DNA of 49,567 bases from Escherichia phage CJ19. The notes beneath the pieces are model-generated. The model worked only from the letters and a program-made list of their open reading frames with translations. It made no database searches and was not told the DNA's origin. The DNA lies in the sequence record MT176427.1. One strand, 5' to 3'. Of this stretch, positions 34,732 to 49,308 are shown piece by piece (within the stretch, counting starts at the first letter, position 1; every line of letters starts with the position of its first letter). The translations under genes and the position numbers were made by a program.

Positions 34732-34776
34732 ACTATAACAAAACCCGCCGGAGCGGGTTTAGCAATTAGTGCTATT
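34732..34776 (-). promoter_or_regulatory. early promoter cassette (ATAGCAC box + TGTTATAGT)
   Basis: Box 34757-34776; hairpin AACCCGC/GCGGGTT in spacer; 22-bp spacer. Confidence 0.5.
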
Positions 34777-35408
34777 TACCAGGGTAATCCATCTTCCCAC
34801 TCGTAAACATCAACCTCTGTAACTGGTGAGCTAATACCGCAAGCCTCAGCCACTGCCATTACACCGCCTTCAATATCACCATTGACCAGATGCACATCAT
34901 GCTCGTTATATTTCTTGTAATCAGGAAAATGCGATTCCTTGATGCGAATGTAATCACGGCTATCGCCAGCGAAAGTCTTGCCATCCATGAACAGGCGGAC
35001 CAGGGTAACATCGTGACCATCTTCAACGAGTCGGATCACTTCGTCGGGGAAGCCGCCATCAGTGCAAACAAAGCAGAAGCCTTCATCACACAGCTGGATA
35101 TGTTCGCTCATCAATTTGCCGAACTGCTGATTGCCAAAAAGCGGCTTGACCACTGTTTCGCTAATCCAGATCATGAACTCACGGCAGGTCTTGCCACCGA
35201 GAAATTTCTGAGGCTGCTCTTTCTGATCGCGGTAGTCGTATGCGGTGATGAACTTTGAGAAAGCTCTGGCACCAAGGATGGATGCCGCAATCTCAAACAT
35301 CGGACGCTTGAAGCTGGTAGGGATGCAGTTGTAATCCGCTGCGAGCGCGTTGCCGATCGTGTCTTTACCAACCGAAGCTGGACCGTTGAGAATGATAATC
35401 TTTGACAT
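34776..35408 (-). CDS. P-loop nucleotide/polynucleotide kinase-like protein
   Basis: N-terminal P-loop GPASVGKDT resembling NMP-kinase Walker A; 210 aa. Confidence 0.5.
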   Translation of the reverse strand: MSKIIILNGPASVGKDTIGNALAADYNCIPTSFKRPMFEIAASILGARAFSKFITAYDYRDQKEQPQKFLGGKTCREFMIWISETVVKPLFGNQQFGKLMSEHIQLCDEGFCFVCTDGGFPDEVIRLVEDGHDVTLVRLFMDGKTFAGDSRDYIRIKESHFPDYKKYNEHDVHLVNGDIEGGVMAVAEACGISSPVTEVDVYEWEDGLPW

Positions 35409-35451
35409 TTTGATATTCCTGAGTAGTGGGCGCGATGTGCGCCCGTTATGG

Positions 35452-35997
35452 TTAGTTTGCTTTCTTGTCTACGCCGTGAGACTTAAGGCCGGAGTGCACG
35501 TTGTCGCCATAGTCACACACCTGATAGGTAGTGATGCCGAGGCTTCGGAAGTGCGCGATAACGCTAGGACTATCATCAAAGGCCGCAGTGATGCGGTGCA
35601 ATCCAATGTAGCGTAAAAATTCTTCCTTTATGATCGTGTCCTTGCGGTTATCATCAGCCTGGCGCATGACCAGAACGTTGTAATTAGCACCAGCATCATG
35701 CAGCCACTGCGTTGATTCCTCGACCACTGCGTCAGATCGACCAGTGAGAACGATAATGAAAGCACCGGAAGCGAACAGGCTATTCATTACGTCAATCGTT
35801 TCCTGGAATGGCTGATCGAACTTGCTCAATGAGTTAAATTCAAGCCATGACTCAGTGAGGTGCAAGTCATTTGTCGGTAGCTTGTGAAGGCGGTGCGAAC
35901 CGTCCGACAGAGTACCATCGAAATCAAATATGTAAACTTTCTTGTTTACTGCTTCCGTTTGAAGGTGATGCTTAATCATTGTGTAAAGCTGGTTCAT
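35452..35997 (-). CDS. HAD-superfamily phosphatase (putative 3-prime phosphatase)
   Basis: HAD motif I DFDGTL near N-terminus, further motifs VLTGRSD and FDDSPS; promoter cassette 36030-36075. Confidence 0.55.
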   Translation of the reverse strand: MNQLYTMIKHHLQTEAVNKKVYIFDFDGTLSDGSHRLHKLPTNDLHLTESWLEFNSLSKFDQPFQETIDVMNSLFASGAFIIVLTGRSDAVVEESTQWLHDAGANYNVLVMRQADDNRKDTIIKEEFLRYIGLHRITAAFDDSPSVIAHFRSLGITTYQVCDYGDNVHSGLKSHGVDKKAN

Positions 35998-36029: not shown

Positions 36030-36075
36030 ATTATACCAGTCAGGATGAATCCCCCTTTAACAAAACGTGCTATTT
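36030..36075 (-). promoter_or_regulatory. early promoter cassette (ATAGCAC box + TGGTATAAT)
   Basis: Box 36056-36075; 22-bp spacer; leader CATCAACCACACGAAAGGAAG before phosphatase ATG. Confidence 0.5.
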
Positions 36076-36876
36076 GATATAGAACTGAGCCACTACGCCA
36101 CCATCAGGATTTACTATTGCGTATGCGTCACCGAGCGTTGCATTGGCATTCATAACCTTACCAATTCTCTTTGCTTTCCATCGGTAATCGCCTTTTAAAT
36201 CAGAGATGAATGCATCTTGTGCGATATGGATAAGGCGAGGCTCGCAACCTGGCTCGCACTCATCAACTTCATAATCGTACTGGCAACCATTGATAAACGC
36301 ATTGCCGTTAACATGGTAGCAAACTGCCACCTTGCGATCGCGTGCAGATTCGCATTCACCCACCGCCCATACGTTACGATTGACATAACCGTAACCGCCG
36401 CTGCGTGGTTCCATTTTCGCGGTTGACATGGTAAGCGCCTTGCCTTCACCGAAATTGCTACCGAAAGTGAACTTGCCGTTCTTCGTCAATTCATCTGCGA
36501 CGCTGTAGGTGTCATTCTTGACGGTCTTACCTGGGCCAGTCGCAAGCTCATTCACGAACGCATCGACAGTGCTGTGACACGGATCGCCATTGTACTTAGG
36601 CAAATCCTTGAGTAATTGTTCACAGGCTTCGTGCACCAGCTTACCTACAGCTTCTTTGATTGCCTGCTCAACATGGTCAGCGATAATCGAATATGCAGAA
36701 ATTTGATGTTTTTGAGTCGATTCTAACGCCTTTAAACGCGCCTGTAACGACTCAATTTCTTGCTTATGCATATCGTAGGATACCCACCGACCATCGTCGC
36801 AGGCTTGCATTCTGACGCCGTGAATGTTAACGCTGGTTGCTACTGCTACAGGATTAAAACGGTTGATGCTGTTCAT
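36070..36876 (-). CDS. hypothetical Cys-rich protein (268 aa)
   Basis: ORF with C-terminal Cys cluster (CQYDYEVDECEPGCEP); promoter cassette 36918-36963. Confidence 0.4.
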   Translation of the reverse strand: MNSINRFNPVAVATSVNIHGVRMQACDDGRWVSYDMHKQEIESLQARLKALESTQKHQISAYSIIADHVEQAIKEAVGKLVHEACEQLLKDLPKYNGDPCHSTVDAFVNELATGPGKTVKNDTYSVADELTKNGKFTFGSNFGEGKALTMSTAKMEPRSGGYGYVNRNVWAVGECESARDRKVAVCYHVNGNAFINGCQYDYEVDECEPGCEPRLIHIAQDAFISDLKGDYRWKAKRIGKVMNANATLGDAYAIVNPDGGVVAQFYIK

Positions 36877-43221: not shown

Positions 43222-43379
43222 TGCTCAAGCCATCCGATTTGAACTACTACGACAACGACACGATCGCGAAGCTCTCAGGTCAAGGATGGTATCCATGGAG
43301 CACCATCGCTCAGGTTGAAGACTTGCAAAGCAGTTACGAAATCACACAGAAAGCAATTGAGAAGGCTAAGAAGAAATGA
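43221..43379 (+). CDS. small hypothetical protein (52 aa)
   Basis: Manually translated ORF (MLKPSDLNYYDNDTIAKLSGQGWYPW...) with TAATG and ATGA overlaps to neighbours; below ORF-track cutoff. Confidence 0.3.
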   Translation: MLKPSDLNYYDNDTIAKLSGQGWYPWSTIAQVEDLQSSYEITQKAIEKAKKK

Positions 43380-44044
43380 AAAAGGTAATTTACTGCTTGT
43401 TCGACGGTTCTGGTATCGCTGGCCTCCCATGGGCGGAAGATGGTCACACCGTCTACTGCTTCAATGCGGACTCCGGCAATCATGGCGAATACCATATCAA
43501 GATGAAGCATGAGAACATCCACTACGTCAACATGTGGATTGACAAGGATTTCATCACTAAGTGTGAATTGCTCGGCCTGCCTCCGGCGCAAATGGTTATC
43601 GGCTTTCCTGATTGCACGCTGTTCTCTCAGTCTGGATCACAGCATGAGCGCGGGGAAGATGAGCTGGCATACGCCCTGGCTAACGCGAAGCTCGTCGAAG
43701 AAGTCGGCAATCACTTCCAGGCACCATGGATGGTTGAGAATCCGGTAGGCAAGCTGTCAAGCCTGTGGCGTAAGCCTGACTTCTATTTCAATCCTTGCGA
43801 TTATGGCGGTTACGTTGATCACGATGATGTTTATCACCCAAGAATGCCCCCTCGTAATGCTTACAATAAAAAGACTTGCATTTGGTGTGGCAATGGATTT
43901 GTTGAACCTATTAAAAAGCCAGTTGAGAGCATTGGATTCTTCTGGGCCTGGAAATACTGCGGCGGAAAGTCTGCAAAGACAAAGGTACTCCGCTCATTAA
44001 CACCGGAAGGCTTTGCTCGCGCACTATATGAAAGCAACAAATAG
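43376..44044 (+). CDS. DNA methyltransferase-like protein (C5-cytosine-type motif order)
   Basis: Motif I-like FDGSG, motif IV-like GFPDC with Cys, motif VI-like ENPVG in the right order and spacing; short (222 aa). Confidence 0.4.
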   Translation: MKKVIYCLFDGSGIAGLPWAEDGHTVYCFNADSGNHGEYHIKMKHENIHYVNMWIDKDFITKCELLGLPPAQMVIGFPDCTLFSQSGSQHERGEDELAYALANAKLVEEVGNHFQAPWMVENPVGKLSSLWRKPDFYFNPCDYGGYVDHDDVYHPRMPPRNAYNKKTCIWCGNGFVEPIKKPVESIGFFWAWKYCGGKSAKTKVLRSLTPEGFARALYESNK

Positions 44045-48120: not shown

Positions 48121-48166
48121 GAATATAGCGCCTTCCGGAGCTATAGTGTTAGGCAATTCGTGCTAT
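48121..48166 (-). promoter_or_regulatory. promoter cassette (ATAGCAC box variant + TATATT)
   Basis: Box 48148-48166 (TTGCCTAA variant); precedes small ORF 47921-48094. Confidence 0.4.
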
Positions 48167-49308
48167 CAGATGTCGCTCATTTCAGGACGGTAAACAAAGC
48201 GACCGACTTCGCCGAACTCCTTGGAGTAGACAATTACCGCCGCCTGGCGATATGAGCGCCAACCGCCGCGCGCTGCATAGGCATCTTTCGCGCCAAGCTG
48301 ACCGTGAATCTCATCAATACCCAGCGTGCCTTCTGTGATCGTCTGGTGATGCCAGTGTCCTGAGTGAGTGTAGATATATTTGCTCGTACCGAACTCTTCG
48401 CGGAAGTCAGTCGCCATTGCCGCCAGTCGAGTATCAGCTTTCTTCATGGTGTGACCATGAGTGTATCCAAGCAATGTTTTGCCCCACTTTGTACGGTGAA
48501 GAATCATAGGAGACGTATCAACCGTTACGCGCGCCTCATCTTCAAAGTATGCCGCCATTGCAGCGCGGAGCCAAATCATACCCGCCTGATCATGGTTCCC
48601 TTCAATGATCTGGATTTCGACCTCTTCGTGCTTATCCAGCATTAGCGCCACCGCGCGGCGTACGGAACGGATTGCAACGTGAACTATCTTGGCGTATCGA
48701 CTATCCTGATCCAGTACGTGACCGCTTGCAGGCGTTACTGCGTCCAGGCCATCAGAGTGAAGGAAGTCACCGCCGATTAACAGGACTGCTTTCTTAGCCT
48801 TCGGTGATACGCCGACAGAATAATCAAAGAAGTTTTTCAGCACTTTCTCTGAGATGTCGGTGCTGTAGTTCTCACCGCATTCATGCTTGTGGGCCATCGC
48901 GCCAATATGAAGATCGAATACCGGATAGAGCGCCAGGAGATTTTCATCGTAGTGAGGTTCGCCAAGGATAGGCTGAGCCGCCGCGCGTGGTAGTTCATCA
49001 CAGAATGCTTCAATTGCAGCATCCATCATGGCGGCTAACTTTTCCTTGTCCTGATCGGTCTTAACCCAGCGCACAACCTCAGAACCGTCAGCGCGAATCA
49101 TAGTTGATGTACCTTTAACCTGAAAACCCTCTGGTACGTGTACTCTTACGTGTTTATTTCCGTGGAACTCACCGCGCTTTGCCAGGCGGCTTGAGCGCTG
49201 CTCAACAGTTCTAATGTTCATCCCGTATTCCTGGGCGATTTGGCGCAGCGTTTTACCAGCTTCGCGTTCAGCAATGAATTGTTCGTCAGTGATTTTTTGA
49301 ATAGCCAT
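48166..49308 (-). CDS. metallophosphoesterase (calcineurin-like) with N-terminal HTH
   Basis: N-terminal HTH-like TLRQIAQEYGMNIRTV; phosphoesterase motifs FDLHIG, GDFLHSD, GNHD, GHTM, GHWHH. Confidence 0.6.
   Translation of the reverse strand: MAIQKITDEQFIAEREAGKTLRQIAQEYGMNIRTVEQRSSRLAKRGEFHGNKHVRVHVPEGFQVKGTSTMIRADGSEVVRWVKTDQDKEKLAAMMDAAIEAFCDELPRAAAQPILGEPHYDENLLALYPVFDLHIGAMAHKHECGENYSTDISEKVLKNFFDYSVGVSPKAKKAVLLIGGDFLHSDGLDAVTPASGHVLDQDSRYAKIVHVAIRSVRRAVALMLDKHEEVEIQIIEGNHDQAGMIWLRAAMAAYFEDEARVTVDTSPMILHRTKWGKTLLGYTHGHTMKKADTRLAAMATDFREEFGTSKYIYTHSGHWHHQTITEGTLGIDEIHGQLGAKDAYAARGGWRSYRQAAVIVYSKEFGEVGRFVYRPEMSDI

Follow-up and report, generated by a model that had tools for sequence, protein, structure and literature searches.

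Do the adjacent genes for a P-loop kinase-like protein and a HAD phosphatase in Escherichia phage CJ19, a T1-like coliphage of the Drexlerviridae, form a split version of the T4 polynucleotide kinase/3'-phosphatase (Pnkp), or do they act together on mononucleotides? We addressed this question in a stretch of 49,567 nucleotides of the phage DNA (record MT176427.1), which is referred to as the window in its whole length. A first-pass annotation of the locus had proposed that the two genes mirror the two catalytic domains of T4 Pnkp and could heal nucleic acid ends cut by host nucleases.

Locus and gene organization

According to the ORF listing, two neighbouring minus-strand ORFs exactly span positions 34776-35997 of the window (Table 1). 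The adjacent kinase-like (GPASVGKDT) and HAD (DFDGTL) genes that had been reported here were recovered, and both motifs were verified in the DNA. They are real genes and not chance ORFs, as shown by their PHROG and Pfam matches, the conservation of the HAD-kinase region (80-95% nucleotide identity across 96 phage records) and the terminator-like hairpin that follows the kinase gene. This hairpin is probably the end of the transcription unit. A pattern scan for promoters and terminators gave site counts not above shuffle expectation, and only the terminator after the kinase gene was positionally sensible. In the spacer between the two genes, the coding strand has no T-run and the scan flagged a hairpin on the plus strand only.

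Table 1 Coordinates of the features discussed in the text
Feature	Position	Strand	Remarks
HAD phosphatase gene	35452..35997	-	181 aa; Pfam, PHROG and PDB sequence matches, AF2 fold
HAD motif I DFDGTL	35908..35925	-	residues 25-30; predicted Asp25 nucleophile and Asp27 acid-base; verified in DNA
Predicted dNMP kinase (DNK) gene	34776..35408	-	210 aa; T4 gp1 / Rao1 R1DNK family
Kinase P-loop GPASVGKDT	35358..35384	-	residues 9-17; verified in DNA
Spacer between HAD and kinase genes	35409..35451		43 nt; G+C-rich inverted repeat 35423-35449 and kinase ribosome-binding site
Intrinsic-terminator-like hairpin and T-run	34741..34760	-	directly 3' of the kinase stop; consensus match only
'DNA repair exonuclease' homologue	48166..49308	-	phrog_704, E 5e-152; 12 kb from the pair

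About 2.3 kb separate the pair from the small terminase gene, which lies downstream. An ORF at 36070-36876, upstream of the pair, matches no Pfam or PHROG family and is present in only 16 phage records; on these grounds it was rejected as a candidate for a hidden ligase.

Family assignment of the phosphatase

The HAD protein scored 69.7 bits against the Pfam family PF25109 HAD_PNKP (cut-off 27.6, E 3.8e-19) and matched phrog_415 with an E value of 2e-63. Its sequence matches in the PDB were Pnkp1 (4xrp) and T4 Pnkp (1ltq/5uj0), and the same structures (1LTQ, 4XRP, 5UJ0) were the top Foldseek matches of its AF2 model (pLDDT 82.5). An hhalign comparison with the C-terminal domain of T4 Pnkp gave a probability of 97.5%. 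When full T4 Pnkp was searched against all window ORFs with phmmer, the single match was the HAD protein, via T4 residues 197-297, and no Pnk-type kinase domain was found in any window ORF.

Motif I aligns to D165/D167/T169 of T4 Pnkp. Residues D25, D27, T85, R87, K124, D120, D141 and D142 correspond to T4 catalytic positions in the alignment and do not vary among 20 homologues, and R36 aligns with R176 of the T4 enzyme (alignment A5). Arg176, Arg213, Asp254 and Asp277 of T4 Pnkp are residues that we take to be catalytic in the phosphatase in addition to the published set. That set comprises the nucleophile Asp165, the acid-base Asp167 and the likewise catalytic Ser211, Lys258 and Asp278, and the T4 phosphatase hydrolyzes 3'-dTMP at 24 per second (PMC3592404). 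The subfamily to which the window protein belongs is marked by an insertion past motif I, HRLxxLP...HLTESWxEFN (residues 35-55), which extends about 12-16 residues beyond T4 Pnkp and in which HLTESW..FN is near-invariant. The Pfam score, the catalytic residues and the predicted fold all assign the window HAD to the T4 Pnkp phosphatase family, as a stand-alone phosphatase of the DxDxT type.

Family assignment of the kinase

The kinase matched phrog_139 (E 5e-42, profile positions 82-259) over the span that it shares with T4 gp1 (E 1.8e-65, positions 83-261). T4 Pnkp has no match to phrog_139, and the window kinase has none to phrog_505 or phrog_2071. Identity to the window kinase is 44% for R1DNK of phage Rao1 (E 2e-51) and 45% for the DNK of phage KarlJaspers (QXV82329.1). 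The top PDB match of the AF2 model (pLDDT 85) found by Foldseek was 1DEK, the structure of T4 gp1 (TMq 0.65), and no Pnkp chain is among the top 50 PDB structural matches. The top 50 viral structural neighbours likewise include none labelled Pnkp; most of those with names carry the label dNMP kinase, one neighbour being a fusion with a nucleoside 2-deoxyribosyltransferase. In the model, helices at residues 35-106 lie between strands 28-31 and 112-115, as would be expected of the helical NMP-binding insert between beta-2 and beta-3.

With alignment A3 of the kinase, hhalign aligned 73-178 collinear columns with T4 gp1, with GKDT, Y.DR and L.G.SP in common, whereas the alignment with the T4 Pnk kinase was limited to the 23-residue P-loop. 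An earlier run with the shallow alignment A1, uninformative and now superseded by A3, had recovered no more than the P-loop from T4 gp1 and T4 Pnk alike, with Pnk scoring slightly higher. Sequence searches of the PDB with the kinase, as a single sequence and as profiles A1 and A3, returned P-loop-level NTPase matches only, with neither 1DEK nor Pnkp among them. The P-loop itself has the GKD[T] form that characterizes gp1-type dNMP kinases (GKDT in T4 gp1 versus GKST in T4 Pnk); G14, K15 and D16 are invariant across 38 diverse members of the family, and Lys15 matches the catalytic Lys15 of R1DNK. After strand beta-2, at the place of the general base Asp35 and of Arg38 in T4 Pnk, Lys34 is invariant in the family alignment and acidic residues are lacking.

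Profile and structure thus place the window kinase in the gp1/R1DNK-type dNMP kinase family and not with Pnk-type 5'-OH polynucleotide kinases. The first-pass annotation had likened it to the kinase domain of T4 Pnkp, a view that has to be given up; grouping with dNMP kinases is the very outcome that the annotation itself had named as refuting the kinase half of its proposal. Of the proposed likeness to the two domains of T4 Pnkp, the phosphatase half stands (PF25109, residues, fold) and the kinase half does not (phrog_139, 1DEK, similarity to Pnk in the P-loop only). The T1-like phage gene usually labelled "polynucleotide kinase" has no kinase domain, and its neighbour is a predicted mononucleotide kinase. 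The HAD-DNK pair as such is already known in T1-like phages and is annotated "PNK" plus "dNMP kinase" in relatives.

The characterized orthologues agree with this assignment. Purified R1DNK of phage Rao1 phosphorylates dAMP, dGMP, dCMP and dTMP in vitro, and it raises dADP in vivo. Its K15A variant no longer triggers the toxicity of the Kongming defence, from which the authors inferred that catalysis is needed. The KarlJaspers DNK triggers Kongming, a dNMP-kinase-dependent system, which implies dNMP to dNDP activity. As the kinase is the trigger sensed by Kongming, we expect the window phage to be sensitive to this defence.

Coupling of the two genes and genomic context

Among 80 related loci, 66 have both genes on one strand with the HAD gene upstream; the pair is absent or disrupted in some relatives, such as L011/DTL (14/80 loci). 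We found two HAD-DNK fusion proteins, both with the HAD in front of the DNK and one of them seen in three contigs. The pair is also present in the Autographiviridae phage CF7, and the order of HAD then DNK recurs in several phage families (Drexlerviridae, Autographiviridae and others). This conserved synteny, together with the occasional fusion, shows that HAD and kinase are linked functionally and coupled in evolution.

No ligase family was found by PHROGs among the 20 non-structural window ORFs, and none is annotated in the whole genomes of KarlJaspers and Rao1 or in the ETEP102 stretch. The phmmer search with T4 Pnkp gave only the HAD. The earlier remark that no ligase lies nearby is confirmed, although a ligase of the host might serve in its place. 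A tRNA scan found no tRNA genes, which leaves the pair without a tRNA-repair or replacement context. The window phage does not encode DNA polymerase, ribonucleotide reductase or thymidylate synthase.

In Rao1, gp56 directly precedes gp57 (HAD) and gp58 (DNK) and is 63% identical to the window exonuclease of phrog_704. A 'DNA repair exonuclease' adjoining the HAD-DNK pair has been reported for many Drexlerviridae (PMC13164509), and the phrog_704 exonuclease is possibly a third partner of the pair. CF7 and PM16 have Metallophos-like ORFs beside the pair, with weak scores of 20.5-20.9 bits that fall just below the cut-off of 21.5. That these ORFs are kin of the window exonuclease was considered and rejected, as BLASTP found no similarity. 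In PTXU04 the HAD is two genes away from an Rv2179c-like 3'-exonuclease, and in L006 the gene of such an enzyme lies about 2 kb upstream of the fusion gene on the opposite strand. In the rV5-like phage HMD-6, the DNK adjoins an NT5C-type HAD deoxynucleotidase, ThyX, ThyA and RNR. In a Krischvirus that has PseT and RnlA, an additional HAD of the window subfamily directly follows nrdA-nrdB.

Proposed function of the pair

We suggest, at even chances, that the pair is an early-gene nucleotide-supply module of the T1-like phage and not a split end-healing enzyme. With ATP and its P-loop Lys15, the kinase would turn 5'-dNMPs into dNDPs, a reaction shown for its orthologues. The dNMPs would come from the host chromosome degraded by the phage, and the host Ndk would convert the dNDPs into dNTPs for phage replication. 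T1 and TLS are known to break down host DNA and then recycle its nucleotides, and the enzymes of this recycling in T1-like phages are unidentified according to the TLS authors (PMC11447400). The KanT1 authors likewise interpret the pair as boosting nucleotide supply (PMC13164509).

The HAD would be a Mg2+-dependent phosphatase with the full 3'-phosphatase catalytic set of T4 Pnkp (Asp25, Asp27, Thr85, Lys124, Asp141/142). It may act in the pathway of the kinase by stripping 3'-phosphates from DNA breakdown products, the candidate substrates being 3'-phosphorylated oligonucleotides, deoxynucleoside 3',5'-bisphosphates and 3'-dNMPs. The dephosphorylated products might then be trimmed to, or might directly be, the 5'-dNMP substrates of the DNK. 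With 3'-dNMPs as its sole substrates, the HAD would produce deoxynucleosides, which are of no use to the DNK, and the coupling would therefore need 3',5'-bisphosphates or 3'-phosphorylated oligonucleotides. Because deletion of dnk in Rao1 has no measurable fitness cost, the supply role would not be essential in laboratory conditions. More tentatively, and rather unlikely in our view, the stand-alone HAD subfamily (HR..LP..TESW..FN) may carry out an undescribed step of deoxynucleotide salvage, in which 3'-phosphate removal from deoxynucleoside 3',5'-bisphosphates or 3'-phosphorylated oligonucleotides of the degraded host chromosome hands 5'-dNMPs directly to the DNK. If true, the two enzymes would form a channel that is common to several phage families.

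For nucleotide supply we counted the gp1/R1DNK family membership of the kinase, its coupling to the HAD by gene order and fusion, the nucleotide-metabolism neighbours of the DNK and HAD in HMD-6 and Krischvirus, the hydrolysis of 3'-dTMP by T4 Pnkp, the reuse of host DNA by T1 and TLS, the view of the KanT1 authors, and a window that has neither a ligase nor a Pnk-type kinase. Counted against it were the closest characterized relatives of the HAD, T4 Pnkp and Pnkp1, which are nucleic-acid end-healing enzymes, the useless deoxynucleosides expected from 3'-dNMPs, the dispensability of dnk in Rao1, and the relatives in which the pair is absent or broken.

Three other explanations were weighed. 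In a split enzyme like T4 Pnkp, the kinase would act on 5'-OH ends and the HAD on 2',3'-cyclic or 3'-phosphates, and a host ligase would reseal the cut tRNA or DNA. Such an arrangement could draw on a phosphatase of the Pnkp family whose catalytic residues are complete, on fusion and synteny that show joint action of kinase and phosphatase, and on mammalian PNKP, whose domain order of phosphatase then kinase is that of the HAD-DNK fusions. We nevertheless hold it to be very improbable: the kinase falls in the gp1/R1DNK family with 44% identity to a proven mononucleotide kinase, resembles T4 Pnk in the P-loop only, finds no Pnkp chain in its top 50 PDB matches and no Pnkp label in its top 50 viral structural matches, and has the invariant Lys34 and no acidic residue in place of Asp35/Arg38. 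The window also encodes no ligase, and Krischvirus has the HAD subfamily besides a complete PseT and RnlA; as it carries both, the subfamily and PseT/RnlA are not redundant. The HAD-DNK pair should not be taken as an RNA-repair or anti-anticodon-nuclease system.

The HAD alone might heal the 3' ends of nucleic acids, as a 3'-phosphatase/2',3'-cyclic phosphodiesterase that serves host LigA or polymerases, and its link to the DNK would then reflect shared early expression and not chemistry. Its task would be to unblock ends of phage DNA or RNA after damage by host nucleases, in keeping with its closest characterized homologues, the end-healing phosphatases, and with the genes found near it: that of the Mre11/SbcD-like 'DNA repair exonuclease' of Rao1 and of many Drexlerviridae, the Metallophos-like ORF of CF7 (weak, just below the cut-off), and that of the Rv2179c-like 3'-exonuclease near the HAD of PTXU04 and the fusion gene of L006. 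Co-regulation alone, however, hardly explains why two lineages have the HAD fused to a dNMP kinase and why the order is fixed across several families. Mononucleotide metabolism is suggested by the nrdAB genes beside the HAD in Krischvirus and by the NT5C neighbour in HMD-6, and the subfamily insertion beside the active site is missing from T4 Pnkp; we consider this explanation unlikely. Somewhat less likely still is a 5'-deoxynucleotidase like Dmp of phage T5, which would level out or drain the dNMP pools and in this way prevent the DNK of the phage itself from setting off Kongming-type immunity. The N-terminus of T5 Dmp is similar (DxDGT then HR), with a collinear but weak alignment (BLASTP match of 37 N-terminal residues, E 0.003; hhalign over 82 columns); Dmp homologues often co-occur with DNKs and counter Kongming according to the literature, and the rV5-like DNK neighbours an NT5C-type nucleotidase. 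Yet Rao1 is Kongming-sensitive despite a 72%-identical HAD beside its DNK, dAMP, dADP and dATP rise 2-3-fold in Rao1 infection, T5 Dmp is required in trans for protection, and the hhalign probability is 69% for T5 Dmp against 97.5% for T4 Pnkp.

Comparison with known systems

The closest counterparts of the pair predicted here to supply nucleotides are gp57-gp58 of Rao1 and bas06_0071/bas06_0076 of KarlJaspers, which have the two families of the window in the same order and on a common strand. The HAD of Rao1 gp57 is 72% identical to the window protein and that of KarlJaspers 57%. In Rao1 the pair stands after the 'DNA repair exonuclease' and before the lysis genes, whereas the window pair stands elsewhere with the exonuclease 12 kb off; in KarlJaspers, four small ORFs separate the HAD and kinase genes.

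The window HAD is 23-30% identical to the C-terminal phosphatase domain of T4 PseT (1LTQ, 5UJ0) and Pnkp1 (4XRP), with a TMt of 0.77 for 5UJ0. D165, D167, T169, S211 (Thr in the window HAD), R213, D254, K258, D277 and D278 of T4 Pnkp are all kept. Unlike T4 PseT and Pnkp1, the window HAD has no fused or adjacent Pnk-type kinase domain and no ligase partner; its subfamily also differs from T4 PseT in the extra insertion and co-exists with a genuine PseT in Krischvirus. With T5 Dmp it shares membership of the HAD phosphatases, the DxDGT-HR start, the genomic pairing with a DNK and a putative role in control of the phage dNMP pool. T5 Dmp, however, is a 5'-phosphatase with only remote similarity to the window HAD (hhalign 69%), and it shields from Kongming, whereas Rao1 with its T1-type HAD is unprotected.

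T4 gp1 (1DEK) resembles the window kinase in its PHROG and profile span, as the top structural match, and in GKDT, Y.DR and L.G.SP, although the window kinase is only about 13-18% identical to it. T4 gp1 exceeds the window kinase by about 30 residues, and its helical NMP-binding domain contains insertions, roughly 50 residues in all, that have no match in the window kinase. The T4 annotation excludes dAMP and dCMP as substrates of gp1, whereas R1DNK accepts all four dNMPs.

Kinase of the gene pair

The first-pass annotation had read two adjacent genes as a split enzyme of the T4 Pnkp (PseT) type, with a kinase and a HAD phosphatase healing nucleic acid ends. Two minus-strand ORFs in the ORF listing fill 34776-35997 exactly, and the gene pair itself is confirmed because both ORFs match their families very strongly. 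The window is an essentially complete T1-like siphovirus genome (Drexlerviridae). The 3-kb region round the pair exhibits ~90% identity to Escherichia phages TH30, BUCT-XGG-1 and ESCO41 and is matched by 96 phage records. Next upstream of the HAD gene is a 268-aa ORF that matched no Pfam or PHROG family and whose homologues come from 16 phage records only, all close kin of the window phage.

In Pfam, the kinase has no match above threshold and only a sub-threshold P-loop match. It matches phrog_139, "deoxynucleoside monophosphate kinase" (E 5e-42, profile positions 82-259), as does the experimentally characterised T4 dNMP kinase gp1 (positions 83-261, E 1.8e-65). T4 Pnkp matches phrog_505, phrog_415 and phrog_2071, and phrog_139 is not among them. 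The best PDB match of the AF2 model (pLDDT 85) is T4 deoxynucleotide kinase 1DEK (TMq 0.65), followed by kinases of small molecules, adenylate kinases among them; its top 50 PDB fold matches include no Pnkp chain. The named ones among the nearest predicted viral structures are mostly labelled dNMP kinase, and one structural neighbour is a fusion with a nucleoside 2-deoxyribosyltransferase. When a profile of 38 sequences was compared with the T4 enzymes by hhalign, gp1 aligned over 73 columns locally and 178 collinearly, with GKDT, Y.DR and L.G.SP in both, and the T4 Pnk kinase domain aligned over a 23-residue P-loop and nothing beyond. The family comprises 3636 cluster representatives at E <= 1e-3 in a full-library search and is present in 1425 phage records.

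In the work of Zeng et al., Kongming is a defence system set off by phage dNMP kinases, and R1DNK, gp58 of phage Rao1, is the model enzyme (bioRxiv 10.1101/2024.12.20.629578). Purified R1DNK phosphorylates dAMP, dGMP and dCMP efficiently, and dTMP too; its K15A variant no longer triggers Kongming toxicity, and these authors therefore inferred that catalysis is required (bioRxiv 10.1101/2024.12.20.629578). We found that R1DNK (supplement sequence) exhibits 44% identity to the window kinase over the full length (E 2e-51). The KarlJaspers DNK QXV82329.1 (bas06_0076), also tested by Zeng et al., exhibits 45% identity and is the sole match to the kinase profile in its genome. Because of this 44-45% identity, the window kinase is a predicted dNMP kinase, and its clade is already biochemically characterised. 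Profile and fold comparison place it among dNMP kinases and not as the Pnk-like half of an end-healing enzyme. Such clustering was what the first-pass annotation had itself set as evidence against the end-healing mechanism, which is largely refuted.

Among the window ORFs scanned, there was no Pnk-type kinase, DNA polymerase, RNR or thymidylate synthase, and no ligase either, as had been remarked earlier. The tRNA scan of the window was negative; in the relatives ETEP102 and JulesPiccard, by contrast, a tRNA-Arg lies close to the HAD-kinase region.

Phosphatase of the gene pair

The family assigned to the phosphatase in the earlier reading is supported. The HAD passes Pfam PF25109, "Polynucleotide kinase PNKP phosphatase domain", with 69.7 bits (cut-off 27.6 bits), and matches phrog_415 (E 2e-63); in the PDB its sequence matches Pnkp1 (4xrp) and T4 Pnkp (1ltq, 5uj0). 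T4 Pnkp and Pnkp1 are also the top Foldseek matches of its AF2 model (pLDDT 82.5), and AphA-type acid phosphatases rank next after the Pnkp chains; TMt is 0.77 against 5UJ0, which is the T4 phosphatase domain on its own. The catalytic residues agree. T4 Pnkp D165, D167, T169, S211, R213, D254, K258, D277 and D278 align to HAD D25, D27, T29, T85, R87, D120, K124, D141 and D142, and R176 aligns to R36 in the HAD alignment. All of the aligned HAD residues are invariant across 20 homologues. For D165, D167, S211, K258 and D278 the roles are set out in PMC3592404, which also gives 24 per second as the rate at which T4 Pnkp hydrolyses a mononucleotide, 3'-dTMP.

Compared with T4 Pnkp, the HAD has an extra ~12-16 residues after motif I, with the near-invariant motif HRL..LP..HLTESW.EFN. 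Common to the stand-alone HADs of CF7 (Autographiviridae), PTXU04 (Xuquatrovirus) and JK32 (Krischvirus), this insertion appears from sequence to mark a distinct stand-alone subfamily. It is also present in two HAD-kinase fusion proteins, P0261 and P0267.

Linkage of the two genes

That kinase and phosphatase belong together is supported by synteny and by the fusions. A HAD_PNKP-type ORF lies upstream on the same strand in 66/80 viral-contig loci encoding kinase relatives, always in the order HAD to kinase, with spacing from abutting to ~2.7 kb. The pair also occurs in CF7, KarlJaspers and Rao1 (gp57-gp58), where gp57 exhibits 72% identity to the window HAD. P0261 (403 aa, on three contigs) and P0267 (461 aa), from a metagenomic library, join an N-terminal HAD_PNKP to a C-terminal window-type kinase. 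A conserved linker, ..AAG.xMxKxGxFxGPELHG.., lies between the two parts. One P0261 contig, from a phage and 60.8 kb long, also encodes Prim-Pol, RdgC, PAPS-reductase and Dam.

In an IMG/VR contig of 45,814 bp (phage DTL, P0095), the kinase is split into two ORFs, with an annotated fragment of 127 aa, and there is no HAD up to 4 kb away. Evidently the module can be dispensed with. In T1-like phages the pair is already annotated as "PNK" and "dNMP kinase", and as a gene pair it is ordinary.

Features of the window and of loci in related phages (L, locus)
Feature	Location	Strand	Remarks
P-loop kinase ORF	34776..35408	-	210 aa; GPASVGKDT = residues 9-17
HAD phosphatase ORF	35452..35997	-	181 aa; DFDGTL = residues 25-30
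HAD-kinase spacer	between the two ORFs		43 nt; G+C-rich inverted repeat and ribosome-binding site
Terminator-like hairpin and T-run	3' of kinase gene		pattern match
ORF upstream of HAD gene	36070-36876	-	
Two DNA methyltransferases	789-1517; 43376-44044	-; +	phrog_111, Dam-like, and phrog_757
"DNA repair exonuclease" homologue	48166-49308	-	12 kb from HAD-DNK pair
Rao1 exonuclease-HAD-DNK	L099 36693-39056		gp56-gp57-gp58
HMD-6 (Escherichia phage, rV5-like) DNK and HAD	L090 3995-5196		DNK, then NT5C-type HAD, ThyX, ThyA, RNR
PM16 (Proteus phage, T7-like) DNK region	L091 2280-4543		
CF7 (Aeromonas phage, T7-like) DNK region	L092 2482-4645		
JK32 (Shigella phage, Krischvirus) HAD	L093 4046-4522		nrdA-nrdB-HAD; overlaps nrdB end
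PTXU04 Rv2179c-like (PF16473) 3'-5' exonuclease	L094 4725-5354		two genes downstream of stand-alone HAD
Rv2179c-like 3'-5' exonuclease	L006 6519-7070		~2 kb upstream of fusion gene, opposite strand
P0261 fusion	L006 9143-10354; also L007		
P0267 fusion	L008		
Split kinase	L011 3938-4615		

Possible function of the pair

Phages T1 and TLS recycle nucleotides from the host chromosome, which they break down (PMC11447400). The HAD-DNK pair is most likely a nucleotide-supply module. The DNK would convert 5'-dNMPs to dNDPs, as its orthologues do. The Pnkp-type HAD might strip 3'-phosphates from DNA breakdown products, which would then become, or could be trimmed to, DNK substrates. The contexts in HMD-6, in JK32 and in the deoxyribosyltransferase fusion point to mononucleotide metabolism.

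Alternatively, the HAD would be a 5'-dNMP phosphatase that, like T5 Dmp, shields the phage against Kongming. This proposal is weakened, as Rao1 has the HAD yet is Kongming-sensitive, dAMP rises during Rao1 infection, protection needs T5 Dmp supplied in trans, and the homology of the HAD to T5 Dmp is remote. It is possible that the HAD is a stand-alone DNA or RNA end-healing enzyme, for its neighbour in Rao1 and many Drexlerviridae is an Mre11-like exonuclease, and a 3'-exonuclease gene lies nearby in PTXU04 and on the P0261 contig (L006). Possibly this Rv2179c-like exonuclease recurs as a partner and depends on 3'-OH ends.

In Rao1, the exonuclease is directly upstream of the pair, and in the window it is 12 kb off: the module has changed place within the genome layout of T1-like phages. 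PM16 and CF7 have a ~325-aa ORF ahead of the DNK with a weak Metallophos (calcineurin-like) match just below cut-off, and BLASTP shows no similarity of these ORFs to the window exonuclease. In PM16, the DNK also follows a small ORF whose match to a poly(A)-polymerase head is below threshold, and a HAD is lacking.

The JK32 HAD belongs to the same insertion-bearing subfamily as that of the window, and a complete PseT, together with RnlA, is encoded within a few kb of it in the same genome. The kinase-HAD pairing of HMD-6 is analogous to the window pair, but its phosphatase, of the NT5C 5'(3')-deoxynucleotidase family (27 bits), differs from the window HAD and is non-orthologous.
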